32,000 nt of DNA. It comes from Gemmata obscuriglobus (GTDB lineage: Bacteria; Planctomycetota; Planctomycetia; Gemmatales; Gemmataceae). Below are positions 3,435 to 30,948 of this stretch, one piece after another. The notes beneath the pieces are model-generated. The model worked only from the letters and a program-made list of their open reading frames with translations. It made no database searches and was not told the DNA's origin. The stretch covers positions 1,410,001-1,442,000 of the forward strand of contig NZ_CP042911.1 of NCBI RefSeq assembly GCF_008065095.1, read 5' to 3'. A program made the position numbers and the translations under genes. Position 1 is the stretch's first letter, and the number at the start of each line of letters is the position of its first letter.

Positions 3435-4012
3435 GCCCTCCCTGAAGGGAGGGGGAGCAAAGGCAACCCACCCCGGCCCCTCCCTGAAGGGAGGGGGTGG
3501 CGCCGGGACGAGTGGTCCCGGAGCGGGAGGGGGCGCGTGCGGGGCAACCTACCCCCCGGCCCCCTCCCTAAAGGGAGGGGGTGGCGCCGAGAGGAGTGGT
3601 CCCGACGCGACACGCGCGCCGAGCGTAGACCAACCCCCGGCCCCTCCCTGCAGGGAGGGGAGCAAAGGCGCCCGGGCACCCGAGGCGGAATCGGTGCGCC
3701 CGTGCCTTCCTCCCCTCCCTGCAGGGAGGGGTTGGGGGTGGGTCGCCCCCGCGTGTTCCTTTCGCACCGGGACCAAGGCGGTCTTCCTCCCCTTCCCTTT
3801 AGGGAGGGGGCCGGGGGGTAGGTTGCCCCGCGCGCGCCTCTCGCACCGGGACCAGCGTTCCCGGCGCCACCCCTTCCCTTTAGGGAGGGGGCCGGGGGGT
3901 AGGTTGCCCCGCGCGCGCCTCTCGCACGGGGACCACTCCTCCCGGCGCCACCCCCTCCCTTCAGGGAGGGGGCCGGGGGGTAGGTTGTCTTTGGGGCCGG
4001 GGGGTAGGTTGC
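3435..4012. repeat. REP/BIME-like array B. Units are in reverse orientation from 3435 to ~3690 and in forward orientation from ~3700 to 4012, so the array is itself a large imperfect palindrome.
   Basis: Repeated CCCTCCCT(G/T)(A/C)AGGGAGGG hairpins with CAACC(C/T)ACCCC / GGGG(T)AGGTTG flanks. Segment 3488-3545 is the reverse complement of the array A spacer (GGTGGCGCCGGGACGAGTGGTCCCGGAGCGGGAGGG). Confidence 0.85.
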
Positions 4013-6248: not shown

Positions 6249-6377
6249 GTGGGGGCGCATCACCTCGGGAACGAACGCGCCCGCCCTGGAACCGCGCACA
6301 CGCGCCGTGTACGTTTGCAGGAACACTTGAAGACGCGAGCCGCCGGACCGACCCGGAACGACTGGAGCGGAACTGCC

Positions 6378-7100
6378 GTGACCGTGGAAGAAGCCGCCCT
6401 CCTTCGCGCCATCGCCGCCGCGCCCGGCGACGTCACGGCCCGGCTCGCGTATGCGGACTGGCTCGACGAGCACGGCCGCGGCATCGAAGCCGCCTGGGTG
6501 CGCGACGAGGGCACGGCCCCGCCGTGGGTGACCGACCTTGCTGGCGAGGGTGACGGTCCTGGCCACAACGCCGGCAACGGTGGGGGCGGCGGCTACGGTG
6601 CCGGCGAGGGCGGTGGCCACGGCGGTGGCGACGGCCGCGGTGAGGGCGACGGCCGCGGTGAGGGCGATGGCGAGGGCGAAGGCGAGGGACACGGCTGCGG
6701 CCTCGGCCCCTACGGTGGGGGGGGCGGCAACGGTGCTGGCTACGGCAACGGCCGCGACTACGGCAACGGCGGCTACGGAACCCCAGACAAGCCCCACATT
6801 ACACACGAGGAAGTTTCCATGCCTTCACCCGGTGCGTATGTGATCGTGCGTTCGCGGGATCAGGGTTGCGTGTGCGGTGAGTACCGGGGTCACCACGGTC
6901 GGGAGGTGGTGCTGGGGAAGGCGCGTCAGATCTATTCGTGGGAGGGCGGTCGTCTGACGCTGTTCGACTTCGCGGTGGTGCCGGGGCCGTGCCGGCTGTC
7001 GCGCGAGGCGCCGGGCGAGGTGGTGATGCTGGAGGCGTGCGGCATCATCCCGACGACGCCCGAGGTCGAGGCGTTCCTGCGCGCGCACCCGGGCGAGTGA
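6378..7100 (+). CDS. TIGR02996-type N-domain / Gly-Asp-rich variable core / conserved C-domain protein (paralog P1)
   Basis: GTG 6378 gives VTVEEAALLRAIAAAPGDVTARLAYADWLDEHGRGIEAAWVRDEG, aligned with the MTDPDEAALLRAI starts of the paralogs. The C-terminal 93 aa (MPSPGAYVIVRSRDQGCVCGEYRGHHGREVVLGKARQIYSWEGGRLTLFDFAVVPG..EACGIIPTTPEVEAFLRAHPGE) are almost identical in P1-P5. Confidence 0.8.
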   Translation: MTVEEAALLRAIAAAPGDVTARLAYADWLDEHGRGIEAAWVRDEGTAPPWVTDLAGEGDGPGHNAGNGGGGGYGAGEGGGHGGGDGRGEGDGRGEGDGEGEGEGHGCGLGPYGGGGGNGAGYGNGRDYGNGGYGTPDKPHITHEEVSMPSPGAYVIVRSRDQGCVCGEYRGHHGREVVLGKARQIYSWEGGRLTLFDFAVVPGPCRLSREAPGEVVMLEACGIIPTTPEVEAFLRAHPGE

Positions 7101-7105: not shown

Positions 7106-7816
7106 ATGACCGACCCCGACGAAGCCGCGCTGCTCCGCGCCATCGCCGCCGTGCCGGGCGATGTGACGGGGCGGCTCGCGTATGCGGACTGGCTCGACGA
7201 GCACGGGCGCGGGATCGAAGCCGCCTGGGTGCGCGACGAGGGCTTACCCCCGCCCGGCGTGACCGAACTTGCTGGCGACGGTGAAGGCGCTGGTGCGGGT
7301 GACGGCGGCGGCGATGGTGACAACGACCGGGGTCACAACGACGACCTCAACAACGGCCACGGCGATGGCACCGGCAGCGGTGAAAGCCGCGGCGGTTTCG
7401 GCTACTGCGACATCGACGGCACCGGTAGCGGCTTGGAAAGCGGTTACGCCCGCGGCTATGGGAACGGCGGTGGCTACGGCCACGGCGGCTACGGAACCCC
7501 AAACAAGCCCCACATTACACACGAGGAGGTTCCCATGCCGTTGCCGGGTGCGTATGTGATCGTGCGTTCGCGTGACCAGGGTTGCGTGTGCGGCGAGTAC
7601 CGGGGTCACCACGGGCGGGAGGTGGTGCTGGGGAAGGCGCGTCAGATTTATTCGTGGGAGGGCGGTCGGCTGACGCTGTTCGACTTCGCGGTGGTGCCGG
7701 GTGCGTGCCGGCTGTCGCGGGAGGCGCCGGGGGAGGTGGTGATGCTGGAGGCGTGCGGGATCATCCCCACCACGCCCGAGGTCGAGGCGTTCCTGCGGGC
7801 ACACCCGGGCGAGTGA
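7106..7816 (+). CDS. TIGR02996-type N-domain / variable core / conserved C-domain protein (paralog P2)
   Basis: ATG 7106 lies 5 nt after the P1 stop. Same N- and C-terminal blocks. The core (GDGEGAGAGDGGGDGDNDRGH..GFGYCDI.GTGSGLE.GYARGYGNGGGYGHGGYG) is nearly identical to P5. Confidence 0.85.
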   Translation: MTDPDEAALLRAIAAVPGDVTGRLAYADWLDEHGRGIEAAWVRDEGLPPPGVTELAGDGEGAGAGDGGGDGDNDRGHNDDLNNGHGDGTGSGESRGGFGYCDIDGTGSGLESGYARGYGNGGGYGHGGYGTPNKPHITHEEVPMPLPGAYVIVRSRDQGCVCGEYRGHHGREVVLGKARQIYSWEGGRLTLFDFAVVPGACRLSREAPGEVVMLEACGIIPTTPEVEAFLRAHPGE

Positions 7817-7820
7817 GCCC

Positions 7821-8576
7821 ATGACCGACCCCGAAGAGGCCGCCCTCCTTCGCGCCATCGGCGCGGCACCCGGCGAGTTCACGGCGCGGCTCGCGTACGC
7901 GGACTGGCTCGACGAGCACGGCCGCGGCCTCGAAGCCGCCTGGGTGCGCGACGAGGGCACGGCCCCGCCCCGGGTGACCGAACTCGGTGGCAGCGGCCAC
8001 GGCGAGGGCAAAGGCAACGGCGACGGCCAGAGCGACGGCTGCGACTACAGCGACGACGACGACCGTCACGGCGACGACGGCAGCCACGGGGACGGCTACG
8101 GCTACGGCTACGGCGGTCGCAGCTACAGCCACGGCGTCTACGGCCACGGCTACAGCAGCGGCCGCGGCGACGGCCACGGCTACGGCAGCGGCTTAGGCGG
8201 CCGCGGAATCGGCGTAGGCGAAGGGGACGGCGGCCGCGCCGGCCGCATCGCCACACGAAAGCTTCAACACCTGATCCCCCACGAGGAAGTTCCCATGCCG
8301 GTTTCGGGTGCGTATGTGATTGTGCGTTCGCGGGACCAGGGTTGCGTGTGCGGGGAGTACCGGGGCCACCACGGGCGCGAGGTGGTGCTGGGGAAGGCGC
8401 GTCAGATCTTCTCCTGGGAGGGCGGTCGGCTGACGCTATTCGACTTCGCGGTGGTGCCGGGTGCGTGCCGGCTGTCGCGTGAGGCGCCGGGCGAGGTGGT
8501 GATGCTGGAGGCGTGCGGGATCATCCCGACCACGGCTGCGGTGGAAGCGTTCCTGCGGGCGCACCCAGGGGAGTAG
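7821..8576 (+). CDS. TIGR02996-type N-domain / variable core / conserved C-domain protein (paralog P3)
   Basis: ATG 7821 lies 4 nt after the P2 stop. Conserved ends with a different, longer core (GHGEGKGNGDGQSDGCDYSDDDDRHGDDGSHGDGYGYGYGG...). Shares LQHLIPH with P4. Confidence 0.85.
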   Translation: MTDPEEAALLRAIGAAPGEFTARLAYADWLDEHGRGLEAAWVRDEGTAPPRVTELGGSGHGEGKGNGDGQSDGCDYSDDDDRHGDDGSHGDGYGYGYGGRSYSHGVYGHGYSSGRGDGHGYGSGLGGRGIGVGEGDGGRAGRIATRKLQHLIPHEEVPMPVSGAYVIVRSRDQGCVCGEYRGHHGREVVLGKARQIFSWEGGRLTLFDFAVVPGACRLSREAPGEVVMLEACGIIPTTAAVEAFLRAHPGE

Positions 8577-9405: not shown

Positions 9406-9960
9406 ATGCCCATTCGCTCATCGACGGCCCGCGCGCTCCAGCTCGGTGCGGTGATCGCCACCGCGGAGCAGGTGCAGCAAGGTCTGCTTCACGGCCCCGA
9501 CATCACGCTCGGCAGCCGCGCGCGAGCCGCGGCGGGAATCGAAGAGGTCCGCACCCGGCTCCTCGCCGCGGCCCGCGACTTGGACCGGCGGGTGGGTGAG
9601 CGGCTCCGGTCGAGCGTGTCGTGGTGGGTCCAGTTCGTCCTGCTCGTCTTCTTGGTCGCGCTCGGGGTCGGGTTCGTGTTCGCGGCCGTGCGCCTCATGA
9701 CCAGTGAGGACCCGTCGAACTTAACGTACCTGTTCACCGTCGGCCCGCCGCCGCTGGTGGTCTTCCTTCTGAACCAGTTGCGGCGCATGGAGGTCGATCG
9801 GATCACCGTGAGCCTGCTGGCGGCCCGGTTCGTGCCCCGGATCGAGGCGGCCGGGTCGATCGCCGAACTGGAGGCGATCGCGCGCGAAATGTCCGACTCC
9901 TTGCGGCTCCTCACGAACGCGCCGCGCCCGGCCGCCCCGGGGGCAGGACCCCGAACATGA
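9406..9960 (+). CDS. Membrane protein with two predicted TM helices (hypothetical)
   Basis: ATG 9406 is preceded by GGAG (about 9 nt). Hydrophobic stretches WWVQFVLLVFLVALGVGFVFAAV and YLFTVGPPPLVVFLLNQL. The stop overlaps the next start (ATGA at 9957-9960). Confidence 0.6.
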   Translation: MPIRSSTARALQLGAVIATAEQVQQGLLHGPDITLGSRARAAAGIEEVRTRLLAAARDLDRRVGERLRSSVSWWVQFVLLVFLVALGVGFVFAAVRLMTSEDPSNLTYLFTVGPPPLVVFLLNQLRRMEVDRITVSLLAARFVPRIEAAGSIAELEAIAREMSDSLRLLTNAPRPAAPGAGPRT

Positions 9961-11375
9961 GCAAGAAGATCAAGGAGCTGGAGCTGAACAGCCTCCGCAA
10001 GACCTTCCAGGGCGTGCGGGACTTCGTGCTGCTGGAGCCGCTGAAGCTGGACTCCGCGGCCGACTACACGCTTCGCAAGAGCCTTCGCGAGAAGAAGGTT
10101 CGCGTGAAGATGGTCAAGAACAGCTTCGTGCGGAAGGTGTTCAGCGAGAACGGCATGACGGTGGAGACGGGCTCCGGCCCGACCCTTCTGTGCTGGGGGG
10201 CCGACAGCGCGAAGTCCCTCGGGACCGCGGTGGAGGCGGCTCTCAAGCTGATCCGCCCGGACCTGAAGGTGCCCGAGAAGGTCAAAGAGAAGGTCGGCAT
10301 CGCCGACGGCGAGACCATGACCCTGGCGCAGCTCGCCAAGGTGCCGACCAAGCAAGAGGCGATCGGCGAAGTCCTCGCCGCGGTGCTCGCGCCGGGCGCC
10401 GCGCTGGCCGGGGCGCTCACGGCGCCGGGTGCGGACCTCGCGGGCATCCTCAAGGCGGTCCAGGGCGTGCGGGCGCAGAGGACCCCCGCGGCCGTCGCGG
10501 TGGGGGCGACGGATTCGGCGTGGGCGAGTGAACCCGCCCCTTCTGTGCCGGGTCCGTTCGTGCGGCCGGCGGCCGGCGCGGGCGCCCGGTTGCCCTTGCC
10601 TTCTGTGCCGCGGCCGCCGAACAATGGTGTAGAGCCAGGGGCCGCTCCGGTCCGCTCTTCGGTTCGGAACGCGGAACCGGACCCGGAGGTCGCGCTGCGA
10701 GCGCTGGAGCGGTGGCTGCCGCTGTTGCACGGGATCGGCGCCGGACGGGCGCCGGAGCGCGTGCGCACGATCTGGGGCGAGCACGTCCGGAACGAGCTGT
10801 TCCGCAGCCCCCCGGCGGTCGCCTGGCTCGATCAGTGCTTGGCCGCCCGGCCGTCATTTGCACCTCAGAGGGCCGCGGCACTCGAGGCGCTGCGGCGGGT
10901 GCGGGCCGAGGTGCGGGACGAGTTGACCGGGTTGGGCGAACAACTCGCCCCTCAAGCGGAGGGAACATCGCCCCCCAACGGGGGAAGCGAAATGGATCAG
11001 TTCATCCTGGTTCTGGAGATCGGCGCGCGGGACGGCGGACCCTTGACCGTGGGGCACGAAGCGACCCTGCGGGCGGTGGTCGCGAAAGCTGACGTGGCGA
11101 ACACGGAAGATCACTACAACGGCCACTACAACTGGGTGCCGGCGGGGCCCGGGGAGGTGGTGGCGGTGCGGGTGTTCGCGACCGGCAGCCGGGTGCTCCC
11201 GGCCGAGCGGTACCTCTCGACGCCCCCGCAACCGGGCCAGTCCGTCGAGTTCACGTTCCGGCCCCGGGCCGCCGGCCGGCAGTACCTGCACCTGGCCCTC
11301 GTGGACCGGCACGACTCCGACGTGTACACGGCGTCCCAATACTTCACCGTCGAGCCGGCCGCCGCTGTCGGCTGA
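9957..11375 (+). CDS. Ribosomal protein uL10-like N-domain fused to a Pro/Ala-rich linker, a helical segment and a C-terminal beta-sandwich-like domain
   Basis: Residues 1-~170 follow uL10 by eye: VLLEPLKLDSAADYTLRKSLREKKVRVKMVKNSFVRKVF, GPTLLCWG, LAKVPTKQEAIGEVLAAVLAPGAALAGAL. No rplK/A/L or rpoB neighbours. The C-terminal 128 aa (from MDQFILVLEIG, nt 10992) are beta-rich. Confidence 0.7.
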   Translation: MSKKIKELELNSLRKTFQGVRDFVLLEPLKLDSAADYTLRKSLREKKVRVKMVKNSFVRKVFSENGMTVETGSGPTLLCWGADSAKSLGTAVEAALKLIRPDLKVPEKVKEKVGIADGETMTLAQLAKVPTKQEAIGEVLAAVLAPGAALAGALTAPGADLAGILKAVQGVRAQRTPAAVAVGATDSAWASEPAPSVPGPFVRPAAGAGARLPLPSVPRPPNNGVEPGAAPVRSSVRNAEPDPEVALRALERWLPLLHGIGAGRAPERVRTIWGEHVRNELFRSPPAVAWLDQCLAARPSFAPQRAAALEALRRVRAEVRDELTGLGEQLAPQAEGTSPPNGGSEMDQFILVLEIGARDGGPLTVGHEATLRAVVAKADVANTEDHYNGHYNWVPAGPGEVVAVRVFATGSRVLPAERYLSTPPQPGQSVEFTFRPRAAGRQYLHLALVDRHDSDVYTASQYFTVEPAAAVG

Positions 11376-12962: not shown

Positions 12963-13135
12963 CACCTCTGCACCACTGATCCGTGGGACACATCGTAGGG
13001 TCTTGGGCTGCCGGATCGCTCCTCATTTACGGGTACGACGCTGGTACACGAGACGGTGCTCGCCCGCGCGCGTGATCCCGGGCTCGTCGAGCGGCGCGCC
13101 GCCGGCACGTGGCGCCTGGAACCATCGGGGCGAGT

Positions 13136-13939
13136 ATGACCACCGACGAGGCCGCGCTGCTTCGCGCCATCGCCGCGCACCCGGGCGAGGTCACCGCGCG
13201 GCTCGCGTATGCGGACTGGCTCGACGAGCACGGCCGCGGGATCGAAGCCGCCTGGGTACGCGACGAGGGCACGGCCCCGTGGGTGACCGAACTCGGCGGC
13301 GGCGATGGTGACGGTGGCTGCGACGCCGACGGCACCGGCACCGGCGATGACCACGGCAGCGGTAACGGCGATGGTGACGGCGACGGCTACGGTGACAGCA
13401 ACGGCGACGGCTACGGCGACGGTACGAACTGCGGCGACGGCGCCGGCCGCGGTGACGGCCGCGGCTACGGCGCCGGCGGCGGGGGCAGCGAAATCCACGA
13501 CTACAGCATCCGCGGCGGCAACCACGGCTACGGCCGCGGCTACGGTTACTGCTACGGCGACAGCGACGGCGACGGCGACGGCAACGGTCAAGGCCACGGC
13601 TACAACCCCATCGCCGCGCACAATCTGCAACACCTGATCCCCCACCAGGAGGTTCACATGCCGGAGTCGGGTGCGTACGTGATCGTGCGTTCGCGGGATC
13701 AGGGTTGCGTGTGCGGTGAGTACCGGGGGCACCACGGCCGTGAGGTGGTGCTGGGGAAGGCGCGCCAGATCTACTCGTGGGAGGGCGGTCGGCTGACGCT
13801 GTTCGACTTCGCGGTGGTGCCGGGTCCGTGCCGGCTGTCGCGTGAGGCGCCCGGGGAGGTGGTGATGCTGGAGGCGTGCGGGATCATCCCGACCACGCCC
13901 GAGGTCGAGGCGTTCCTGCGGGCGCACCCGGGCGAGTGA
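13136..13939 (+). CDS. TIGR02996-type N-domain / variable core / conserved C-domain protein (paralog P4)
   Basis: ATG 13136 (MTTDEAALLRAIAAHPGEVTARLAYADWLDEHGRGIEAAWVRDEG). Longest core (GDGDGGCDADGTGTGDDHGSGNGDGDGDGYGDSNGDGYGDG...). Conserved C-terminal 93 aa. Confidence 0.85.
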   Translation: MTTDEAALLRAIAAHPGEVTARLAYADWLDEHGRGIEAAWVRDEGTAPWVTELGGGDGDGGCDADGTGTGDDHGSGNGDGDGDGYGDSNGDGYGDGTNCGDGAGRGDGRGYGAGGGGSEIHDYSIRGGNHGYGRGYGYCYGDSDGDGDGNGQGHGYNPIAAHNLQHLIPHQEVHMPESGAYVIVRSRDQGCVCGEYRGHHGREVVLGKARQIYSWEGGRLTLFDFAVVPGPCRLSREAPGEVVMLEACGIIPTTPEVEAFLRAHPGE

Positions 13940-15550: not shown

Positions 15551-15793
15551 AAAGCGGCGGTATTACCGGGTGCGTGTGTGAGGCGGCGTGTGCCGGGCGC
15601 GGGGCACCGTATGCGTGCGTAGTAGCAACAGAATGCCGCGCTCGCGAAGACCGCCGGAAAAATGTTTTGCGGCGAAGACTGCGGTGCGAATGACTTTCAG
15701 CTACAATTTTCGCGGCACCGTGGTTATCCCAACGCCCGGTGCGCCTCGCGATTCGTGAGGCAGGAGGAAACGCGTGGCTGGCGGAGGTGGCCG

Positions 15794-16153
15794 ATGAAAC
15801 AGATTACCGCCCGAACACCACTCCGAATTGTGTTTTACCGTGACAAGGCCGACCGCAGTGTCGTTGTTGCCCACTGTCTGGAGTTCGATCTGCTCGGCTT
15901 CGGTGACACCAAGCACGAAGCCATGAACATGTTGTGCGAGGCGATCGAACTTCAGGTCAGCAGCGCGGTCAAGGAACAATCGCCGAACGTCCTTTTCACG
16001 CCCGCACCGAGCGAATACTACGTCATGTTTGCGAAGGGCAAGGACGTGGCGATCGGCGAAATGGCGATCGAATTCGAGGCGCCGGACTACAAGATCGAAG
16101 GCGTGAGCGCCCGCGAGTACGAGGACGAGGACGCCGAGTGCGCGACGGCCTGA
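15794..16153 (+). CDS. hicB: HicB-like antitoxin (UPF0150 fold)
   Basis: ATG 15794 with GGAGG 6 nt upstream. VVVAHCLEFDLLGFGDTKHEAMNMLCEAIELQV matches the HicB N-domain pattern (..a.cpel.g..s.G.T.eEA..n..eAi.l). Directly upstream of a HicA-like ORF. GC is lower than the surroundings. Confidence 0.6.
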   Translation: MKQITARTPLRIVFYRDKADRSVVVAHCLEFDLLGFGDTKHEAMNMLCEAIELQVSSAVKEQSPNVLFTPAPSEYYVMFAKGKDVAIGEMAIEFEAPDYKIEGVSAREYEDEDAECATA

Positions 16154-16168
16154 TGCGAGGAGTCGCCC

Positions 16169-16417
16169 GTGGACCGTCCGCTCTCATTGCGTCAACTCAG
16201 ACGAGCCTTGTTCGCTTTTGGGGTGTTTGAGGATACCGGCCGGGGAAAGGGCTCTCATACGATGTTCTATAAGTACATCGATGGTCACAAGGTGAGCTTC
16301 CCGGTCCCGACGAGCCACGACACTCTTCCCACCGCTTACGCCCGGGCGGCTCGCCGAAAGTTCAAGCTGACCGCCGAAGACGGAGTTACTGACCAGCAGT
16401 TCTACGACAACACCTGA
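16169..16417 (+). CDS. hicA: HicA-like mRNA interferase toxin
   Basis: LRQLRRALFAFGVFEDTGRGKGSHTMFYK...VSFPVPTSHDTLPTAYARAARRKFKL follows the HicA/YcfA pattern (l...Gf...r.kGSH..f......tvP.H..l). GTG start with GAGGAG upstream. Confidence 0.75.
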   Translation: MDRPLSLRQLRRALFAFGVFEDTGRGKGSHTMFYKYIDGHKVSFPVPTSHDTLPTAYARAARRKFKLTAEDGVTDQQFYDNT

Positions 16418-16527
16418 GCCCCGCCGGTTAACCGAGTCTTACCAACCCCCAGCGGTACGCGCACCCGCCGATCAGGGGTGCGCCCAGCCTGGGGGCAATT
16501 CGTCTGCGCCGCGCCGGCCGCCGGGCG

Positions 16528-17194: not shown

Positions 17195-19993
17195 ATGTAC
17201 CCGGCGATCACCCTGACGGCCCTCGACGTTCCCGCCCCGCTCCCCGAGCCGGACGCGCACGCGCACCTCCGCACCGAGCTGGCCGCCAAGGTGCGGCGGC
17301 TCGAAGAAACCCTCCTGTCGCTCGACAACCTGCTGGCCCCGCAGGACTGGCTGGACGCCGGCGACGGGTTCCCCGGCCCCGGCTGCTGGCGGGTGAACCG
17401 CCCGGCCCAGCGGACCCAGGACCGCACCCGCGCGCCCCTCTCGTACCTGAACGAGGAGGAGTGGCGCCAGCACGTCGCCCTGGCCCGCGACCTGTGTACC
17501 CGCAACCACCTGGCGCTCGGGTTCCGCGACCACGTCTCCAACTTCATCGGCCCCGTTCAGATCAGCTTCGTGCCCCGCGCCCGCGGCGCCGCACGCGACA
17601 CCGCCCCGGGGCTGGTGTCGGCGTGTACCCGCGCGTGGGCCGAGTGGTGCGAGTTCGCCGAGTGGGGGCAGGGTGAAGAGGACCGCGAAGAGGAGTGCCG
17701 GCGCCGGCTCATCGTGGAGGGCGAAACCACCCTGCGGTTCTTCGTGGGCGACGAGGCGTCGGACGGGCTGCCGTACGCGCGCCACGTGGAGCCGGAACTG
17801 ATCCGCACCCCGCCCGGGGGCAGCACCGCGGACCGGTGCGGGTGGGGCGTGGTGACGGCCGAGGGGGACGACGAGCGCGAGGAGGGGCTGTGGGTGTGCG
17901 ACCCGGCGGACGTGTCGCGCGGGCGCGAGGTGCCGGCGTCCGAGTACGTGCGGGTGAAAGGGAACGTGGACCGCACGGTGAAGCGGGGCCTGTCGGACTT
18001 CCTGCCGGTGGGCGAGCAGTTGCGGAAGGTGCTGGGGCTGCTGGACAACATGGCCCACGTGGCCCGCGTCCAGGCGGCGATCGCGTGGTGGGAACAGTAC
18101 CCGGCGGCGACGGCCGAGCAGGTGGCGGCGCAGGTGCGGCTGGGGGCGGACTACCACCGGCCCAAGGGGGCTCCGGGTTCGGCCGGGGCGGGCACGGAGG
18201 TGACCGGGTACGAGGCCGGGACGGTGGTGCGGACGGAGGGCGGGCGGGAGGTGAAGCCGGGGCCGGTGTCGAGCGGGACGGCCGGGTTCGAGGCGGTGGA
18301 GCGGATGGTGCTGCGCGGGGTCGGGTTCCGGTGGGGGTGCCCGAGCTACTTCAGCGGCGACGGTGACGCCAGCTTCGCAAGCGTGCTGGTGACGGGGTCG
18401 CCGTTCGTGCGTCTGACGCAGGCGCGCCAGGAGCGGGTGAAGGCGTTCGCGTGCCGTGTGGCGTCGCGGGTGGTGGAGTTCTGTGAGCGTTCGGGCCGGC
18501 TCCCGCGTGGGGTGTCGAAGTGGGTGCGGGCGGTGGGCACGTGCGGGCCGGTAGTGATCGCGGACGAGGAGAAGAAGGCGCGGACGTTCCTGGCCTTGTA
18601 CCAGCAGAACTGCGCGGACCCGCTGGAGTTCGTGCGCTCGACGGGCGCGGACCCGGAGCAGGTGGCGGCGAACATCCGGGCGTGGAAGGCGCGGTTCGAG
18701 CCCCCGGGGCCGGGCGGCGGCGGGGGCGCCGGGGGGACGCCGGGCGGCGGCCCGAGCCCGTCGCCGCCGGGCAGCGCCGGCGGGGACGGGAGCAGCCCGA
18801 ACGCGCCGGTGGGGGAGGGGCGCAAGCCGTGCGCGTGCCACGGGCTCGCGCGGGAGAGCACGGGCGGCACAGACGCGCCAGCGAACGGGGAAACAAAAGA
18901 CTCGCTCGGTCGGCGGATTTGCTATTCGGATGGAGAGCGCGTTGCATGCTCTGGCGATGATGCTGCGGATGGGGAACCGGAAGCCGGCGCGAAGGACGGT
19001 TTCGACGCGGCGGCGGTGGGGAAGCAGTTGGTGGATGAGAAGCTGGTGCCCGATGAGAACGAGCTGAACGAGATCCGCGCGAACGGCATCCCGAAGGGCG
19101 GGAAGCACGAGGACAAGGTTGAGAAGAGGTGGGAGCAGGTTATTGCCCGGGTGCTGGGGTCGGGGTGGGTGGTCAGCACGTCGTCGAACGCTGCGGCCGA
19201 CGTGACCGGTAGTCTAGAGATCGACGGTAAGCCGTGTCGCGTTGTGCTCGACGGGAAGTTCAGCGTCGCCGTCGGGGCGGCGTACGATCAACTCCCGGAC
19301 GCGGTGCAGAACAAGTTAAAGGACTCGGCCCAGCACGGCGAGAACACGGTCGTCGCCTACGTCGTGGCGTACCACACGCCGGCAACGGGCAACGGCGGTG
19401 TAGCGGAAGACGGGGTATACTTGCGCATCGGCGCGATGCCGCAGGTGATTAACGTGTCCGACAGCGTGGTGAAGCGGGCGCGGGAGTTCGGCCCGTTTCG
19501 GATTCTGAACAAGGACCAGTACGCGGCCTTACGCGAAGGCAAGCCGGAAGCCGTGCAGGCGCTGCGCGACAACCTGACTCAGCGGCTCACGGCGATCGAT
19601 CTCAAGCGGTACAAGGCCCAAGAGCAACTTGACGACGTGGCGCAAACGGGTAAGGCCGCGGATAAGCTGAGTGAGATGGTTGAGGCGTCGCAAAAGCACG
19701 CCGTGGATCCGAAGGCCGTCGGGAAGCAAACGGCCGCCGCGCTGAGCGGGGCCAACGCGGCGGTCCGGAATGCCCACGTGGCGGCGGTGGTGGCGGGTGC
19801 CCCGGCGGCCGAGCAGGCGGGCGCGGCGGCGGCGGTGCTGAGCGGGCTGACGGACGAGGGGCAGAAGGCGGCCGTGCTGACGGGCGGGTTGGCCGGGCTG
19901 AACCCGGGGAGCCTGAGCGCCGAGCAACTGGCCGTGTTGGAGCGGCTGCTCGCCGCCGCCCGGGGCACCGCTCCGCCGAACCCGCCGGGCTGA
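17195..19993 (+). CDS. Phage portal protein (about the first 500 aa) fused through a Gly/Pro linker to a ~400-aa C-terminal extension
   Basis: Portal-like blocks ARDLCTRNHLALGFRDHVSNFIGPV, NVDRTVKRGLSDFLPV, AHVARVQAAIAWW, GFRWGCPSYFSGD. Linker PPGPGGGGGAGGTPGGGPSPSPPGSAGGDG (~18700-18800). The extension has visibly lower GC at 18890-19700. Confidence 0.7.
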   Translation: MYPAITLTALDVPAPLPEPDAHAHLRTELAAKVRRLEETLLSLDNLLAPQDWLDAGDGFPGPGCWRVNRPAQRTQDRTRAPLSYLNEEEWRQHVALARDLCTRNHLALGFRDHVSNFIGPVQISFVPRARGAARDTAPGLVSACTRAWAEWCEFAEWGQGEEDREEECRRRLIVEGETTLRFFVGDEASDGLPYARHVEPELIRTPPGGSTADRCGWGVVTAEGDDEREEGLWVCDPADVSRGREVPASEYVRVKGNVDRTVKRGLSDFLPVGEQLRKVLGLLDNMAHVARVQAAIAWWEQYPAATAEQVAAQVRLGADYHRPKGAPGSAGAGTEVTGYEAGTVVRTEGGREVKPGPVSSGTAGFEAVERMVLRGVGFRWGCPSYFSGDGDASFASVLVTGSPFVRLTQARQERVKAFACRVASRVVEFCERSGRLPRGVSKWVRAVGTCGPVVIADEEKKARTFLALYQQNCADPLEFVRSTGADPEQVAANIRAWKARFEPPGPGGGGGAGGTPGGGPSPSPPGSAGGDGSSPNAPVGEGRKPCACHGLARESTGGTDAPANGETKDSLGRRICYSDGERVACSGDDAADGEPEAGAKDGFDAAAVGKQLVDEKLVPDENELNEIRANGIPKGGKHEDKVEKRWEQVIARVLGSGWVVSTSSNAAADVTGSLEIDGKPCRVVLDGKFSVAVGAAYDQLPDAVQNKLKDSAQHGENTVVAYVVAYHTPATGNGGVAEDGVYLRIGAMPQVINVSDSVVKRAREFGPFRILNKDQYAALREGKPEAVQALRDNLTQRLTAIDLKRYKAQEQLDDVAQTGKAADKLSEMVEASQKHAVDPKAVGKQTAAALSGANAAVRNAHVAAVVAGAPAAEQAGAAAAVLSGLTDEGQKAAVLTGGLAGLNPGSLSAEQLAVLERLLAAARGTAPPNPPG

Positions 19994-20526: not shown

Positions 20527-20690
20527 GCGACCCACCCCCGACCCCTCCCTGAAGGGAGGGGAGCAAAGCCGCTCGCGCGCCGATCCCGCCTCGGGCACGC
20601 CGTGGTTCTTACTCCCCTCCCTTCAGGGAGGGGTTGGGGGTAGGTTGCCTTCCTCCCCTCCCTGCACGACAAGGGGCCGGGGGTGGGTTG
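20527..20690. repeat. REP/BIME-like array C (three units, mixed orientation, one degenerate)
   Basis: CGACCCACCCCCGACCCCTCCCTGAAGGGAGGGG; CCCCTCCCTTCAGGGAGGGGTTGGGGGTAGGTTG; degenerate CCCTCCCTGCACGACAAGGGGCCGGGGGTGGGTTG. Confidence 0.8.
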
Positions 20691-20813: not shown

Positions 20814-21413
20814 ATGCTCGATCTCGCCGCCGTCGCCGGAATCGGTTCCCTCTCCAAAGCGCTCGCGGATTTCATCAAGCTCCGCCGGGACCGCAAGAGC
20901 GGCGAGGAAACCAAGACCCTCCGCGATTACATCGAAGCCTGCCGGCGCCGCGACCACGCCGAAGCCCTCGGGCGCTTCGATGTGGTCGGCGAGCAACTCA
21001 CCGGCCTCGAACGGCTGATCGAGACCCTGGGCCACGTCACTGACGATCAAGCCGCGGTCGTCCTCAACGCGATCGAGGACGGCAACTTCGCGCTCCTGTC
21101 GCAGCTCCGCACCGCGGACGCCGCGCTCCACGCCCGGCTCGACCAGATCATTCACCGGCTCGGGGTCGCGCCGCGCCAGTTGTTCCGCGACGACTGCCCC
21201 TCGCGACACGACGCCGCGATCCAGGCGTTCGAGGCGAAGTACCTGGACCGGGTGCGTGACGACTTCGGCCGGCTGGAGATGCTCGGCGTGCCCCGCGCCC
21301 AGGACATCCGCCAGAAGCTCGACATCGCATACGTGAGTCTGGAGCTGAGCGCGCTGGCGGCGGACGGCGCCGGCGGCGGGCGCGCCGACAGGGGCGCCGC
21401 TGAGCCGAACTAG
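20814..21413 (+). CDS. N-terminal fragment of a STAND (NACHT-type) NTPase. The ORF ends just before where the P-loop would be expected.
   Basis: AFEAKYLDRVRDDFGRLEMLGVPRAQDIRQKLDIAYVSLELS is the typical pre-NACHT segment (YL..l...f..l.l.G......l.l..vYV.L). It is followed by a Gly/Ala tail and a stop, with no Walker A. Good coding bias. Confidence 0.55.
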   Translation: MLDLAAVAGIGSLSKALADFIKLRRDRKSGEETKTLRDYIEACRRRDHAEALGRFDVVGEQLTGLERLIETLGHVTDDQAAVVLNAIEDGNFALLSQLRTADAALHARLDQIIHRLGVAPRQLFRDDCPSRHDAAIQAFEAKYLDRVRDDFGRLEMLGVPRAQDIRQKLDIAYVSLELSALAADGAGGGRADRGAAEPN

Positions 21414-21571
21414 CCGAGCTGAACGTCGCGCATAAGAGACGTGCCCACGCCCCTCGGGGTGCGGTCGTTTGCAGCAACGTTAAGGCTCCAGGCGTGGCAC
21501 GGGTTGTTTCAGTCTGGTGGCCTCAACGGCCACGACGTGGTGGCCGGGTGGAAGCGAACCGGGGACGAGCG

Positions 21572-21850
21572 ATGCGCGGGAACAGCGTGGCAAAATTGTG
21601 GAGCGAGATGAGCGACGAGGAGCGGGTCGCGTGGTACGAACGGTTCGGGGAGTCGTCCACACCCGAAGAGGTAGCCGCTCTGGCTCGTGGTATCCTCCAG
21701 AACCCTGAGACGCTGGCTGAGGCCCGTCGGTTGCTGGCGGAGTACGACGCTACGCAGGGTGCTTCGAACCCGGAGACCGAAGCACCGAAACCGGTTGAGG
21801 TGCCCGGTCCGCCACCGCCCGCGAAGACGAAGAAAAGGCGCAAGAGGTAA
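21572..21850 (+). CDS. Small hypothetical protein with a basic C-terminal tail (KTKKRRKR)
   Basis: ATG 21572 within track ORF 21494..21850. First gene of the lower-GC island. No recognisable motif. Confidence 0.45.
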   Translation: MRGNSVAKLWSEMSDEERVAWYERFGESSTPEEVAALARGILQNPETLAEARRLLAEYDATQGASNPETEAPKPVEVPGPPPPAKTKKRRKR

Positions 21851-21947
21851 CCTGTTAGCCGCTTCACCGCGCTTCGCATGTCGTGAGCATTGCCGGAAAA
21901 TCGATGGTGCTAAACTGCTGTCAGGCCATGGGTTACGCAAACAGCAC

Positions 21948-22026
21948 TGGACAAGGGGGGCTTGACTCTCCTATAATTTCATGGGCTCTCTACGGGCATT
22001 GAAAAATTCATCTGCCAATTTATATT
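21948..22026 (+). promoter_or_regulatory. AT-rich region with two sigma70-like promoter candidates upstream of the three-gene operon
   Basis: TGGACA (21948), 18 nt, TATAAT (21972); and TTGAAA (21999), 16 nt, TATATT (22021). This is the most AT-rich stretch of the window, 85-160 nt upstream of ATG 22111. Confidence 0.35.
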
Positions 22027-22110
22027 GGATGTCTTTTCCCTGAATTACGGTGCGCCCCACAATTCAGAGAAAAACGAACGCTACGGCGGCGGGACCGCAA
22101 GGCAAATGAT

Positions 22111-22773
22111 ATGAGCTGGACTGAAAACCCCCCCGTCGTCGTCGTGCTGGCTCGCCATTTTAATCCCAGCATCTTTAACCCAGTCTGGCTTGCCAAGCAC
22201 GGTATCCTAAACGAAACCGGAGATTACAAGCCGGACTCGGTATTCACCGGCCAACTGGTCCAGGTGGTGACGGATGATTTTGTATTGGTTGTGACCAATG
22301 ATCAGATGCAATTCATTCTCCTCGCCTCGCCAGAAAGGCATTCGGTACTGATTGAGGAGAAAGTTGGCACATTAATCCGGAAGCTTCCAGAAGTGCCGTA
22401 TCGTGCGGTCGGGCTGAACTTTAACTGGCATAACGCGCTGGATGCGAACCGCTTGGCTGAGGAAACCCGTCAGTTGTTTGCAGGGCGAACGGACGGGATT
22501 TACTCCTGCTTTACCGAGCCGAATGCAAGGTTTGGTGCGTACTTGAGTAAGGATTTTGGACCATTTCGCATGAAATTGGATGTGAAGCCGATCTTGGTCG
22601 AGATGGAAGGGGTAAAGGGGGATCGCATCCAGTTCGCGTTTAACTTCCACCACGACCTACCCGCAGAGCGTAACGCCCCTGACGCGCTCTTTGACCTGAT
22701 CGGTCAGTGGAACGCGGTTCGCACTGAGACCGTCAAGACCATCAAGACCGTTGGCTTCCGGGAACAGCTATGA
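22111..22773 (+). CDS. Hypothetical protein, gene 1 of the lower-GC operon (possibly TIGR04255-like; unverified)
   Basis: 220-aa ORF. Beta-rich, with PPVVVVLARHFNP.., DDFVLVVTNDQMQFIL and RAVGLNFNWH segments that remind me of the TIGR04255 pattern (..RiGLRY.N.i). Its stop overlaps the next start (ATGA at 22770). Confidence 0.6.
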   Translation: MSWTENPPVVVVLARHFNPSIFNPVWLAKHGILNETGDYKPDSVFTGQLVQVVTDDFVLVVTNDQMQFILLASPERHSVLIEEKVGTLIRKLPEVPYRAVGLNFNWHNALDANRLAEETRQLFAGRTDGIYSCFTEPNARFGAYLSKDFGPFRMKLDVKPILVEMEGVKGDRIQFAFNFHHDLPAERNAPDALFDLIGQWNAVRTETVKTIKTVGFREQL

Positions 22774-23657
22774 ACACCACCCTCTCCAACGAATACGACA
22801 CACAGACGAACCGTATTATCGGATTCAACTCCGTTTACACCACGCTGTCGCACATGCCGGCAGGCCATAGCAGCTCTGGTTCGCGTCTCGGGGTGCATAC
22901 GTCAGACTGTGCGCTCTACTCACGTGGTGTCGGCTCCCAAAACTGGGTGCAGCAGGTAGTGTGGTACGGTGCCGACGACGCTGGTGGCTTCGAACTGATT
23001 CCGAGCGTTCAGGAGAAGGGCTACTACGGTGCCCGTAAGGTTGAGAAGCGGCCCTCTGCGCCAACGGTTTCCGTTGTATTGTTAAAATCGGAGCCGGTGC
23101 CGCGTGAGGCGAGAGGGGAGCCGGTTAAATACCTTGCCGAGGTGGTGAAATACGCCACTGCAGTGGCGCACGCACACGACGAACTGGTAGCGAACGCGGC
23201 TAGACCGATGCCGGTGTCGGTGATCGTTAATAATTTGGCTATTCGTCCAGTGGATCATAAGGACAAATGGGAAAAACGACTGGACGATCTCCAAACCTTT
23301 GAGCGTGACTGGGACAGCTACGGCGCTGAGCCACCGAGCCAACAATCGATCGGTAACGCTCGCGCCTTCGTGGCATTTCTCAGGACGAACTTCAAGGAAC
23401 CTGACGCGCTAAATCCCTCGGCGGTGGGCGGAGTGGGCTTCACCTTTCGCGACGGCAAGCGGTCAGTGTATATTGAGTTTCGGAATACCGGAAACGCACA
23501 CGCCGCTTTTATGGGCGCGGGTAAGCCTCGCGTCGAGAAGGTCATCCAGGACGCGGATGGCTTCCGGGCCGTGATGCACCAGACCGAGACGCACTTGTAT
23601 GAGCAAGATGCCGCCACAGCCCGAATTGATGAAACGAGCCGGCCGTCCCGTTATTGA
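22770..23657 (+). CDS. Hypothetical protein, gene 2 of the lower-GC operon
   Basis: 295-aa ORF translationally coupled to gene 1. The C-terminal half has a LQTFERDWDSYGAEPPSQQSIGNARAFVAFL ... PSAVGGVGFTFRDGKRSVYIEFRNTG pattern. Confidence 0.6.
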   Translation: MNTTLSNEYDTQTNRIIGFNSVYTTLSHMPAGHSSSGSRLGVHTSDCALYSRGVGSQNWVQQVVWYGADDAGGFELIPSVQEKGYYGARKVEKRPSAPTVSVVLLKSEPVPREARGEPVKYLAEVVKYATAVAHAHDELVANAARPMPVSVIVNNLAIRPVDHKDKWEKRLDDLQTFERDWDSYGAEPPSQQSIGNARAFVAFLRTNFKEPDALNPSAVGGVGFTFRDGKRSVYIEFRNTGNAHAAFMGAGKPRVEKVIQDADGFRAVMHQTETHLYEQDAATARIDETSRPSRY

Positions 23658-24150
23658 TGAATTCCACGACGATGAGTACCTCTACCGGCGCGTTCCGACC
23701 AGAATCTGGCCGGCGGTGGACGCTCCGCTTACCGTCGATGCGATGAACCTTCCTGACATTTCGATGGCTCGCAGTTCTCTCGGCCACCCGGAGTGGTTGA
23801 GGCTTGATATGCATGCCAACATCCCTCGGAAGAACTGGGGGGTGATCGGCGTGCGAGTCCGGTTGGTACCACCCATGTGTCAGCCGGATGGTGGCCCGTT
23901 ATTTACCTATCGCGTGGTTCATGTACCACTGGACTATGACTATCCGCACAGCGAGGTGAGAGCCTTCGACGGTGAGAGACACCTTGATTCGAAGGAGAGC
24001 GTGCTGCCGGAGGATCTTCACCTTGAATGGCGAGCAACTCTGCTCGAAGCGTGCGAAGTGATGATTCGTCCGAACGAGCAGTGCTCCATCCGCAATGATC
24101 CGCCGAAGTCGCATGAACCAGAGCCGCACCCCGACTTGAAGAGAGGATGA
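23599..24150 (+). CDS. Hypothetical protein, gene 3 of the lower-GC operon (toxin-like; function unknown)
   Basis: 183-aa ORF overlapping gene 2 by 59 nt. Alternative in-frame starts at 23608 and 23629. Motifs LYRRVP, DISMARSS, HVPLDYDYPHSEVRAF. Confidence 0.55.
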   Translation: MSKMPPQPELMKRAGRPVIDEFHDDEYLYRRVPTRIWPAVDAPLTVDAMNLPDISMARSSLGHPEWLRLDMHANIPRKNWGVIGVRVRLVPPMCQPDGGPLFTYRVVHVPLDYDYPHSEVRAFDGERHLDSKESVLPEDLHLEWRATLLEACEVMIRPNEQCSIRNDPPKSHEPEPHPDLKRG

Positions 24151-24297
24151 TGTGACAAGGGACAGAGGTGCATGCAAATTCATCCTCTAGTCGAACCGCT
24201 AAGCAATCCTCAAGGCTCAAGAAACTGCAAAAGAAACGCAATATCGGCCAACTCTGACAAGCACTTCTCCCCGGCCGGCCGGTGACATCGGCCGGGG

Positions 24298-24891
24298 ATG
24301 AGCACCCTTCTTGCGCCGGCTCCGGTTCCCGATCCTGCGCCCGTGGCGGTCCGCCCGGCGGTGCCGGGTGACTGGACGTTCCTCGACCACCTCCAGCGGT
24401 TGCACCACCACGCCATCGGGTTCCTGTCACGTGCCGCGCTGGGCGAGGCCATCGACCGCGGGCGGGTGCTGCTGGCGCTGGAGAACGGCTTGCCGGCCGG
24501 GTACCTGTACGCCGCGCCGCGCTACCACCGGCGGGCGGACGTGGCCGTGATCTATCAGGCGGCGGTGAGCTTCGATGCGCGGCGCCGGCACCTGGGCACC
24601 GGTCTGGTGCGGGCGTTCGCGGAGCGGTTGCCGGCGACGGTCGGGCAGGTGTCCCTGTGGTGCGCCGCGGACCTGGAGGCGGGCGGGTTCTGGTCGGCGC
24701 TGGGGTTTACGCCGGTGGCGATGCGGGCCGGGGCGCACAACAAGCGGACGCACGTGTTCTGGTGCTGTAACCCCCGTTACACCGGGTCGGGGCCGGTGGG
24801 GACGTTCTGGGTGCCGGAGGCGACGCGCGGCGGTGTGGTCCGCGCCACCCGTACGGTGACGCGCCTCGCGCCGGCGCGGGGCGAAGGTTAG
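24298..24891 (+). CDS. GNAT-family N-acetyltransferase
   Basis: VRPAVPGDWTFLDHL.., YQAAVSFDARRRHLGTGLVRAF (Q/RxxGxG/A acetyl-CoA motif), LEAGGFWSALGFTPV. Contains one TGTAAC-CCCC-GTTACA palindrome near its 3' end. Confidence 0.7.
   Translation: MSTLLAPAPVPDPAPVAVRPAVPGDWTFLDHLQRLHHHAIGFLSRAALGEAIDRGRVLLALENGLPAGYLYAAPRYHRRADVAVIYQAAVSFDARRRHLGTGLVRAFAERLPATVGQVSLWCAADLEAGGFWSALGFTPVAMRAGAHNKRTHVFWCCNPRYTGSGPVGTFWVPEATRGGVVRATRTVTRLAPARGEG
24766..24783. repeat. Isolated copy of the TGTAAC-CCCC-GTTACACC palindrome
   Basis: Same arms and spacer as the first copy in the ParB-like gene (3039-3056). Inside the GNAT CDS (codons CNPRYT). Confidence 0.85.
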
Positions 24892-24974: not shown

Positions 24975-25383
24975 GAAGACCTAACCCCCCGGCCCCCTTC
25001 CCTGAAGGGAAGGGGGTGGCACCGGGAGGAGTGATCCCGGGGCGGGAGGTGCGCGCGGGGCGACCCACCCCCAGCCCCCTCCCTGAAGGGAGGGGGAGGA
25101 TGGTTGATCCGCGAAGCGAACGTGATTCGCGATGCGGAACCGAAGTGCCTTCCTCCCCTCCCTTCAGTGAGGGGCTGGGGGTGGGTTGTCTTCGGTTTTG
25201 CTCCCCCTCCCTTCAGGGAGGGGGCTGGGGGGTGGGTTGCCCCGCGCGCGCCTCTCGCGCTGGGACCAGCGTTCTCGGCGCCACCCCCTTCCCTTTAGGG
25301 AAGGGGGCCGGGGGGGTAGGTTGTCTTCGGTTCTGCTCCCCCTCCCTTCAGAAGGGGGCCGGGGGGTTAGGTTGCCTTTCCTC
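24975..25383. repeat. REP/BIME-like array D. It includes a unique 48-nt element (25102-25149) shared in inverted orientation with array E.
   Basis: Multiple CCCT(C/T)CCCT..AGGGA(G/A)GGG hairpins in both orientations. 24979-~25240 is the reverse complement of ~30555-30815. Confidence 0.85.
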
Positions 25384-25401: not shown

Positions 25402-25947
25402 CAGGTGGGCCGGTCGGCTTCCGATGGGGCACCGACGGGACATTCGCTGCCGATCGACTGCCGGTTCGCTGGTCGGGTGCTGGGCGGTCGCTACCCACGA
25501 ATCACGCCCCCAAAGCCCCCCCAATGCGGCAGGAGACGAGCGGGTGCGCTATCGGTGATGGTCGAGTTCTGTGTCGTAACGCTTTGATGCTTTTGTGCTT
25601 ATAGCGATTGCGATCCGTGCGGACCGCTTCGCTTCCCGGACGGCAATCACGCGCCAGAATCCCTCCGGTGTGGGCAGAGACGAGGTTCGAGCTGCCAGAA
25701 CTACCACACAGGGAAAAAGTAGTTGGGAAATGACCGGCGCACCGGTGGGCAGCAGTTTCGCAGGTAGGGGCGTAAGATTCGCGCCTGCCATGAGTGTCGG
25801 GCAAATATTAAGCGGGAGCAAGGAGCGTGTAACTTGTTCTCTCCACACAAATTCCGTTTTGGCTCGGCCTGGGAGTTGCTTTTGCTTATAGCGGCGGACG
25901 GTGCGGCATCCCGCGTAGCCTCCGATCCACAACCGGAAGGTGTCGCA

Positions 25948-26403
25948 ATGTGCCCTGTACCACCGAGCGAGAGCACGACCGAATCGGAACCGCCGCTGCG
26001 GGTGCTCTGCGTGGACGACAACAACGACGCCGCCGACACGACCGTCGAGCTGCTGTGCGCCGTCGGGTTCGAGGCGCGGGCCTGTTACAGCGGTCCGACG
26101 GCGCTGGCGCTGGCGGCAACGTTCCACCCGGGGGTGTGCCTGCTGGACCTGAACATGCCGGGCATGGACGGCGACGAGCTGGCGCGGCGGCTGCGCCCGG
26201 ACCCGGACGCCGGGCCGGTGGTGCTGGTCGCGCTCACGGCGATGAGCGACGACAACAGCCGGCGGCGCATCGCGGCGGCCGGGTTCGACCTCCACCTGGT
26301 GAAGCCGGTGGACCCGCACCAACTGGTCACGGTGGTGGACAAGCTGTGGCACTCGTGGGCGGTGCGGCAGAAGCAGTCCGAACGCGCGCAAGCGGCGCAG
26401 TAG
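25948..26403 (+). CDS. Single-domain CheY-like response regulator receiver
   Basis: ATG 25948 with GGAAGG upstream. LRVLCVDDNND, phospho-acceptor context CLLDLNMPGMDG, LVALTAMSD, HLVKPVD. Confidence 0.8.
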   Translation: MCPVPPSESTTESEPPLRVLCVDDNNDAADTTVELLCAVGFEARACYSGPTALALAATFHPGVCLLDLNMPGMDGDELARRLRPDPDAGPVVLVALTAMSDDNSRRRIAAAGFDLHLVKPVDPHQLVTVVDKLWHSWAVRQKQSERAQAAQ

Positions 26404-30460: not shown

Positions 30461-30948
30461 GAAGACCTAACCCCCCGGCCCCCTTCCCTAAAGGGAAGGG
30501 GGAGCAAAACCGAAGACAACCCACCCCCAACCCCTCCCTGAAGGGAGGGGAGGAAGGCAACCTACCCCCAGCCCCTCCCTGAAGGGAGGGGAGCAAAACC
30601 GAAGACAACCCACCCCCAGCCCCTCCCTGAAGGGAGGGGAGGAAGGCACTTCGGTTCCGCATCGCGAATCACGTTCGCTTCGCGGATCAACCATCCTCCC
30701 CCTCCCTTCAGGGAGGGGGCTGGGGGGTGGGTCGCCCCGCGCGCCCCTACCGCCCCGGGATCACTCCTCCCGGCGCCACCCCCTTCCCTTTAGGGAAGGG
30801 GGCCGGGGGGTTAGGTTGCCTTTCCTCCCCCTCCCTTCAGGGAGGGGGCTGGGGGGTGGGTCGCCCCGCGCGCCCCTACCGCCCCGGGATCACTCCTCCC
30901 GGCGCCACCCCCTTCCCTTCAGGGAAGGGGGCTGGGGGGTTAGGTCTG
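30461..30948. repeat. REP/BIME-like array E. Its inner part is inverted relative to array D, and its first ~40 nt are a direct repeat of the start of array D.
   Basis: GAAGACCTAACCCCCCGGCCCCCTTCCCT(A/G)AAGGGAAGGGGG occurs at 30461 and 24975. The unique element at 30645-30692 is the reverse complement of 25102-25149. A ~120-bp unit is duplicated at 30700-30820 and 30823-30945. Confidence 0.85.

Follow-up and report, generated by a model that had tools for sequence, protein, structure and literature searches.

The genome of Gemmata obscuriglobus carries, within the 32,000-nucleotide stretch analyzed here (contig NZ_CP042911.1, positions 1,410,001 to 1,442,000 of the forward strand; hereafter the window), an island of low G+C content with three overlapping genes, g1, g2 and g3. 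An earlier note, made from the letters of this DNA, put the three genes forward as a candidate novel system. The comparisons described below give a different division: the conserved core consists of two genes, one ending in a domain that we call g2C and, directly after it, g3, and g1 is an optional first gene that can be exchanged for others. The g2C-g3 pair is widespread in Planctomycetota. The novelty holds in the sense that nothing characterized resembles the genes, but the core is, by profile alignment, a distant relative of an already listed defense candidate, PDC-M32. The features of the island are as follows, in window coordinates.

21490..24290, no strand: low-GC island, 0.55 G+C from 21900 on against a background of 0.72
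21900..22110, + strand: AT-rich leader 5' of g1, with a sigma-70-like match (by consensus only)
22111..22773, + strand: gene 1 (g1, GobsT_12020), 220 amino acids (aa)
22770..23657, + strand: gene 2 (g2, GobsT_12030), 295 aa, with an ATGA overlap with g1 (4 nucleotides, nt)
22770..23249, + strand: N-terminal extension of gene 2, about aa 1-160, variable
23250..23657, + strand: g2C, the C-terminal domain of gene 2 (about aa 161-285), followed by a short tail
23599..24150, + strand: gene 3 (g3), 183 aa, with a 59-nt overlap with g2; GobsT_12040 is a too-short version

The coordinates of the three open reading frames (ORFs), the ATGA junction and the 59-nt overlap are all as the earlier note had them. 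The products of g1 and g2 are identical to GobsT_12020 and GobsT_12030, and that of g3 is identical in part to GobsT_12040. The public annotation of the latter gives 113 aa from a start placed 70 codons late, so that 23599-23811 is missing. The long form is real: homologs conserve its first 70 residues, including a near-invariant YRRVP and the invariant Ser of PDxS. We searched Pfam, NCBIfam, PHROGs and PADLOC with the proteins singly and with alignments of whole families; PDC-M32A, found by PADLOC, was the sole match. In Pfam, NCBIfam and PHROGs there was no match to g1, g2 or g3, to housekeeping and phage structural families or to any other; an ORF labelled g0 had a weak PHROG connector match (E 0.018). 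Sequence and profile searches of the PDB with five alignments gave no match either, and we found no published paper that describes the g1, g2 or g3 families.

The trio does recur elsewhere as a unit, in the same order and with overlapping genes, in a Zavarzinella metagenome-assembled genome (L002), in Fimbriiglobus ruber (L022), and in metagenome contigs (L001, L003, L024, L031, L075 and others), but what is conserved throughout is g2C with g3. Scanning 185,579 species genomes with a g3 profile yielded 17 loci, all of them in Planctomycetota (Gemmatales, Pirellulaceae, Isosphaeraceae and Phycisphaerales). A gene ending in g2C lies directly 5' of g3 in 16 of the 16 loci that have upstream DNA, and g1 is clear in three of these and weak in a fourth. 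Starting from g2C, a metagenome scan gave 39 loci. Downstream DNA is available for 32, and in 27 of these the ORF that follows g2C encodes a g3 homolog; in the remaining five the downstream ORF is unrelated, doubtful or absent. Thus g3 was never found without g2C and g2C was occasionally found without g3, which is the asymmetry expected were g3 harmful alone. An exhaustive profile search with g2C returned 2,432 representative clusters (50% identity) at E <= 1e-3; most of these proteins are 105-330 aa long and carry the domain at the C-terminus.

The junction of the two genes is equally conserved. Of 48 distinct loci, 46 show an overlap of the two, which in 28 loci is exactly 8 nt long. The end of g2C is a conserved YL[DHN]E followed by the stop codon because the ATG of g3 is written across those final codons. 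Read from this overlap, the pair is translationally coupled. Two marks of type II toxin-antitoxin (TA) systems are therefore seen in the pair: the genes are small, adjacent and, as overlapping co-directional genes, co-transcribed and coupled, and the would-be toxin gene never comes without the would-be antitoxin gene, since g2C is present at all 16 of the 16 g3 loci with upstream DNA.

The first position of the operon is variable. The g1 family has 55 homologs, and its AlphaFold2 (AF2) model is a confident alpha/beta structure (pLDDT 93.5). A fold search of the PDB found no convincing neighbor for it; the matches were to an AdoMetDC prozyme and to ACT domains, at TM-scores of 0.33 or less, and we assign g1 to no known family by sequence or by fold. 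The suggestion that g1 is TIGR04255-like found no support, as 0 of 47 family members match that NCBIfam model at E <= 1. In other loci the first gene encodes either a DUF6941 protein (PF22091, E 1e-17) or a protein of 115 aa with the motif EFHYIKS; neither is related to g1, and a literature search for TIGR04255 and DUF6941 found no paper on either. The presence of g1 goes together with the form of its neighbor. The N-terminal extension of g2 has a median length of 142 aa in loci with g1 and 35 aa in loci without it (Mann-Whitney p = 7e-4, with two g1-positive loci counted as negative, so that the real contrast is stronger), and the motif PIPSV..GYYG.RK.EKR in the extension is seen solely in loci that contain g1. 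We infer that g1 could be an accessory or sensor subunit that acts with this extension.

g1 also heads another cassette, in which it is followed by proteins of about 150 and about 250 aa (L026, 5001-6848; L076, 7001-8874; L077, 7001-8866). The last protein is the conserved one: its members share the motifs PLSQGDILK, LSRPC and FYLGQ and end in a coiled-coil tail. It belongs to no Pfam family and shows no similarity to g3. The middle protein is poorly conserved. We considered it as a relative of the g2 N-terminal extension and rejected this, there being no similarity.

The g2C domain is about 115 aa long and is marked by the motifs WDSYGAEPPS, PSAVGGVGFTF and VYIEFRNTGNAHA, with invariant W, P, GG, E and N residues. 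It is this domain that leads to PDC-M32. The PDC set comprises 145 candidates, which Payne and colleagues proposed on finding the genes embedded within BREX, DISARM and type I restriction-modification loci (bioRxiv 10.1101/2024.01.29.577857). The sole other paper that names PDC-M32 lists it among matches in Sinorhizobium prophages (PMC12429752), and we found no paper on its function. With PADLOC, aa 140-248 of g2 match positions 235-342 of the 375 in the PDC-M32A profile (E 2.8e-8). Comparison of g2C with the C-terminus of M32A by hhalign gave a probability of 97.2% (E 2.8e-11, 118 columns), and on these alignments the two are homologous.

For g3 the relation to the second protein is more distant. 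Against M32B, hhalign gave P = 6.8e-4 and a probability of 27% for an alignment of 66 columns at the N-terminus; in five comparisons run as controls P was 0.12-0.79 and the alignments had 10-20 columns. The two families share the motifs hh[YW]R, LSxxRxS and WxVxV. Because the gene context matches as well, we consider remote homology of g3 and M32B likely but not proven. In PADLOC, 0 of 22 members of the g3 family match PDC-M32B or any other model at E <= 1. The locus is not a member of PDC-M32 in the strict sense: the A model does not span the length of g2, and the B model misses g3.

Genuine PDC-M32 loci show what the two arrangements have in common. Four are on plasmids, of Rhodococcus (A, E 1.7e-168 over 1-371; B, E 2e-41), Rhizobium, Limnohabitans (where VapBC and RelE-family genes adjoin) and Sinomonas (with a type I restriction gene in the vicinity); a fifth is gp31/gp32 of Gordonia phage MagicMan. 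The A protein is 240-400 aa long and is followed by a B protein of about 140-150 aa, with an overlap of 4-11 nt, or a short gap in MagicMan; neither A nor B has a Pfam family. As in the island, there are two adjacent co-directional genes in the same order with a stop/start overlap (59 nt in the window). The differences lie in front of the shared domain and in the hosts. The N-terminal region of M32A, about 250 aa, has no counterpart in the window, which has g1 and another extension instead; g1 as a relative of that region, or of DUF6941, was rejected (hhalign probability <1%). The hosts are Planctomycetota here, and for PDC-M32 they are Actinomycetota and Pseudomonadota (plasmids) and the Gordonia phage. 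A further variation at the front end comes from one related locus (L074), in which the g2 relative (6424-7008) has a UPF0150/HicB-like domain (aa 1-67) fused to g2C (aa 68-194), directly 5' of g3.

g3 itself is probably an enzyme, to judge from invariant residues of catalytic appearance. In 35 sequences, down to 25% identity, S55, W80, H108, P110, H117 and E119 are invariant, and R30, R31, D53 and R58 nearly so. The best AF2 model (pLDDT 88.5, pTM 0.85) is mostly beta. It places R30 and R31 in the first strand (27-32) and S55 in the second (53-58); H108 closes the fourth strand, and H117-S118-E119 start the fifth (117-124). In ADP-ribosyltransferases (ARTs), whose fold is a split beta-sheet, the catalytic triad is laid out as R-S-E or H-Y-E on strands 1, 2 and 5. 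The g3 model resembles the R-S-E layout in its strand order and in its conserved Arg in strand 1, Ser in strand 2 and Glu where strand 5 begins. When the model was searched against the PDB with Foldseek, the top eight matches, all of them weak, were to KptA/Tpt1 (several entries) and AvrPphF ORF2, and five more of the top 13, also weak, were to Tne2 and Tpt1; we take all these proteins to belong to the ART superfamily. The viral library gave only a DarT fragment (E 1.4). An ART-like effector is our leading hypothesis for g3, one that we hold tentatively and would not yet call probable. We also considered g3 as a HEPN protein (R58-x4-H63) and rejected this, since diverse members do not keep H63 and the model is rich in beta structure.

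One of the weak fold matches, Tne2, is an effector of a type VI secretion system, and a small enzyme-like protein tightly linked to a small partner is also what an interbacterial polymorphic toxin with its immunity protein would look like. We find this highly improbable here. At only some 180 aa, g3 carries no trafficking, PAAR, Rhs or secretion domain at its N-terminus, the putative immunity gene lies upstream rather than downstream, and secretion-system genes are not consistently near.

We turn now to the DNA in which the genes lie. The earlier note had sampled a shift in composition, and windowed G+C bears it out: 500-nt windows in 21501-24500 have 0.51-0.63 G+C against about 0.70-0.78 elsewhere, and 21900-24290 as a whole has 0.552 against 0.723 in the rest of the window. 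G+C at third codon positions (GC3) is 0.61-0.65 in g1, g2 and g3 and 0.81-0.96 in neighboring genes. With both shifts strong, the island is foreign in composition and horizontally acquired, as had been proposed. Its right edge is sharp (about 24290-24300) and its left edge gradual (21400 to 21900). The shift in composition holds for the module in general, whose G+C is below that of the host DNA in 17 of 17 tabulated loci and likewise in L074 and L075. Because the module is poorer in G+C than its hosts, has different neighbors at each locus and is patchily distributed, we regard it as mobile and foreign.

The most AT-rich stretch of the window precedes the trio, also as noted before: the 150 nt beginning at 21931, immediately 5' of g1, are the lowest in G+C (0.453) of the whole 32 kb. 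They contain a putative promoter, a consensus match of the sigma-70 type (TGGACA-18-TATAAT, 11/12) at 21948-21977. The last 25 nt or so of the leader (GGCGGGACCGCAAGGCAAATGAT) are common to the two closest relatives, L001 and L003.

Upstream in the window lie phage-like genes, in agreement with the earlier description: a D5-type primase/DUF5906, a small terminase, three DUF6948 paralogs and a lambda-family portal. Downstream there are a GNAT gene, a response regulator and a phytochrome kinase. The small ORF at 21572-21850 is present, with its basic C-terminal tail (KTKKRRKR), and adjoins the trio in no other locus examined. It and the GNAT gene were rejected as components of the system, as neither is conserved near the module elsewhere. 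The ORF at 20814-21413, described earlier as a broken STAND gene, is not a conserved neighbor of the module in other loci, and its identity is not established: it has a sub-threshold CATASP match (E 0.016) and no plasmid or PDB match, so that the STAND label is unsupported.

The phage-like surroundings raise the possibility of a phage-encoded anti-defense or lysogenic-conversion ('moron') operon. The module follows portal-like and other phage-like genes in the window, in L024 it adjoins a phage lysis cassette, where it comes after endolysin and holin genes, and a PDC-M32 relative is found in phage MagicMan. However, both g2C and g3 are absent from 2.9 million IMG/VR viral contigs, g2C has no tblastn match in 50,697 GenBank phage genomes, and most chromosomal loci have no phage genes nearby. 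Since the pair was not found in these collections, a dedicated phage-borne anti-defense role is unlikely, and we give an operon of this kind very little credence.

The idea of a defense or anti-defense operon thus stands in part. Its defense half is helped by the match of g2 to the defense candidate PDC-M32A, and its setting by one locus in particular. In L075 (JGI Ga0394879_0033541, region 25-3908), a Type ISP restriction gene is present as two opposite-strand fragments, Type_ISP_C and ISP_coupler, with the full trio (959-2981) between them; MutS_III/V and ABC_tran/AAA_21 genes adjoin the fragments. The trio there is either an insertion into a degraded defense gene or embedded in that gene. 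Against the setting, most loci are among ordinary metabolic genes. The flanking genes are different at every locus: a patatin gene in L002, GroEL and PhoD in L022, PSCyt/DUF1501 genes in L074, and sulfatase and amidohydrolase genes in another. PADLOC gave no match among those flanking proteins of the window that were tested.

From these data we favor the view that the island is a mobile TA-like conflict module, with g3 as the putative effector, g2 as the neutralizer and g1 as an accessory or sensor subunit; on sequence evidence we think this somewhat likelier to be right than wrong. In this scheme g3 would be a growth-arresting effector enzyme, most likely of an ART-like fold, in which Arg from strand 1, Ser from strand 2 and His-x-Glu from strand 5 would form an active site for NAD+ and a macromolecular target. 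g2C would be the neutralizer or partner of g3, either binding and neutralizing it or undoing its action, and coupled translation would keep g2 and g3 at a fixed ratio. The part ahead of g2C would set the condition for release of g3, such as infection by a phage or the element being lost. That part would be g1 with the g2 N-terminal extension in the window, and DUF6941, the HicB-like domain or the long N-terminus of M32A elsewhere.

What the host or the element would gain is a separate question. The sequence cannot decide between abortive infection, that is defense, and addiction to the element; the diversified front ends point to sensing and for that reason favor defense. A purely selfish cassette that stabilizes the phage-like element or the island by post-segregational killing, with no role against phage, would have the same TA-like architecture. 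It would also suit the place of the window module at the edge of a phage-like element, the lysis cassette next to the module in L024, and the plasmid-borne PDC-M32 relatives beside VapBC and RelE-family genes. Yet the exchangeable first genes and variable N-terminal extensions suggest a diversification of sensors that addiction does not need, and many loci show no mobile-element genes nearby. We think such a cassette unlikely.

Several considerations weigh against a TA-like conflict module. The toxicity of g3 and its neutralization by g2 are both things that we infer. Most loci are outside recognizable defense islands, and seven sit among ordinary genes. PDC-M32, the relative that ties the pair to defense, is itself only predicted, by guilt of embedding. 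No recognizable DNA-binding domain (helix-turn-helix, ribbon-helix-helix or AbrB) is found in g2, whereas most type II antitoxins carry one. As to g3, one of five AF2 models is confident (pLDDT 88.5, then 78.7 to 53.6), from a 22-sequence alignment; the fold matches are weak (E 0.07-1, TM-score 0.24-0.30, root-mean-square deviation 8-9 A); a Pfam search with 35 members gave nothing beyond scattered noise at E <= 1, and PDB profile searches gave no match; and M32B, in an alignment read by eye, lacks a Glu at the position matching E119 of g3. Finally, g2C is conserved unusually well for a simple binding antitoxin, and may be a ligand binder or an enzyme itself.

This last point agrees with a quite different possibility, that the pair is a two-subunit enzyme or regulatory system of Planctomycetota with no part in conflict, carried on mobile DNA, in which g3 would be, for instance, an enzyme that modifies small molecules or nucleotides, and g2C its ligand-binding partner. 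The invariant polar and Gly residues of the strongly conserved g2C could make up a ligand site, many of the loci have metabolic genes around them, and g3 matches no known toxin family. Such a system would not readily account for the patchy distribution, the G+C below that of the host throughout, the varying neighbors and the exchangeable first gene, nor for the homology to a candidate embedded in restriction and BREX systems, the HicB-like fusion in one relative and the locus between Type ISP fragments. We consider it distinctly improbable. The conflict module, in turn, might be a part of something larger, a very large and unrecognized planctomycete family of immune or abortive-infection systems, with g3 as a new ART-like or new-fold clade of effectors, g2C as a new domain, neutralizing or ligand-sensing, that PDC-M32 shares, and exchangeable first genes (g1, DUF6941 and others) as plug-in sensors. 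This is conceivable, and we are inclined to doubt it.

How would a TA-like module of this kind compare with known ones? In the ART-fold toxin systems DarT-DarG, ParS-ParT and RES-Xre/MbcT-MbcA, as in the island, a small putative enzyme has a dedicated putative neutralizer; KptA/Tpt1 enters the same comparison as a fold relative, to which the g3 matches are weak. The strand-5 motif is H-S-E in g3 and E/Q-x-E in the ARTs, g2 is neither a macrodomain nor an ART antitoxin of the Xre or any other known type, and g3 has no significant sequence or profile match to ART families, with fold scores below significance. The two-gene coupled layout recalls HicAB, as does the UPF0150/HicB-like domain of the L074 protein, but g3 is unrelated to HicA and the g2 of the window lacks the UPF0150 domain. 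Tripartite TA systems such as toxin-antitoxin-chaperone (TAC) systems also have a third small protein in the operon, and here its presence tracks an extension of the putative antitoxin, a part played in TAC systems by the chaperone-addiction segment of the antitoxin. Unlike the TAC chaperone, g1 resembles neither SecB nor any known chaperone, occupies the first place in the operon, and is found as well at the head of a cassette whose later genes are unrelated.

To our knowledge, almost nothing is known experimentally of conflict and antiviral systems in Planctomycetota, whose large genomes hold many genes of unknown function. The island is now tied to a gene pair whose protein clusters number in the thousands, and the pair has a testable anatomy: candidate catalytic residues, a conserved partner domain and an 8-nt coupling junction. 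The link to PDC-M32 means that experiments on one family would inform both. Should g3 prove ART-like with an H-x-E site, the superfamily would be extended by one clade of toxins and one antitoxin domain, both new; should the module be an immune one, its modular three-part architecture would be without characterized precedent.

Some other features of the window deserve mention. A GC-rich palindromic repeat (CCCTCCCTKMAGGGAGGG) occurs in 25 copies with up to 2 mismatches (0 expected), all intergenic, in clusters at 1883-2156, 3436-3970, 20543-20632, 24996-25222 and 30532-30928. It looks like a repetitive extragenic palindromic (REP)-like element of Gemmata and yields spurious miRNA-like Rfam matches. 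The copies that flank the island were considered as its boundaries and rejected, as clusters of this repeat are found in many intergenic regions of the window. An Rfam search for non-coding RNA in the island gave nothing but sub-threshold hairpin matches on these palindromes. ARAGORN called a tRNA-Arg(CCT) at 25218-25293, which is doubtful and probably a false positive: a palindrome cluster surrounds it, and the tRNA model of Rfam gives no match there at E <= 1. Were it genuine, the tRNA gene might be the site of integration at which the phage-like element ends.

In the phage-like region, the three DUF6948 paralogs (6249-7097, 7743-8573 and 13076-13936) carry that domain at their C-termini (E about 1e-26). 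The ORF at 9708-11372 (555 aa) in the same region has a Ribosomal_L10 match (E 1.1e-8, above the Pfam cut-off), which is unexpected there. A second low-GC island, 15551-16500 (0.61), holds two small adjacent ORFs, 15662-16153 and 16169-16417, neither of which had a match in a phmmer search of the PDB. The GKGSH motif in the second recalls HicA, and the first presumably resembles HicB-type antitoxins. Short low-GC stretches (<0.62) are also found at 19401-19700, in the 3' part of the portal-like ORF, and at 25451-26050, upstream of the response-regulator gene.

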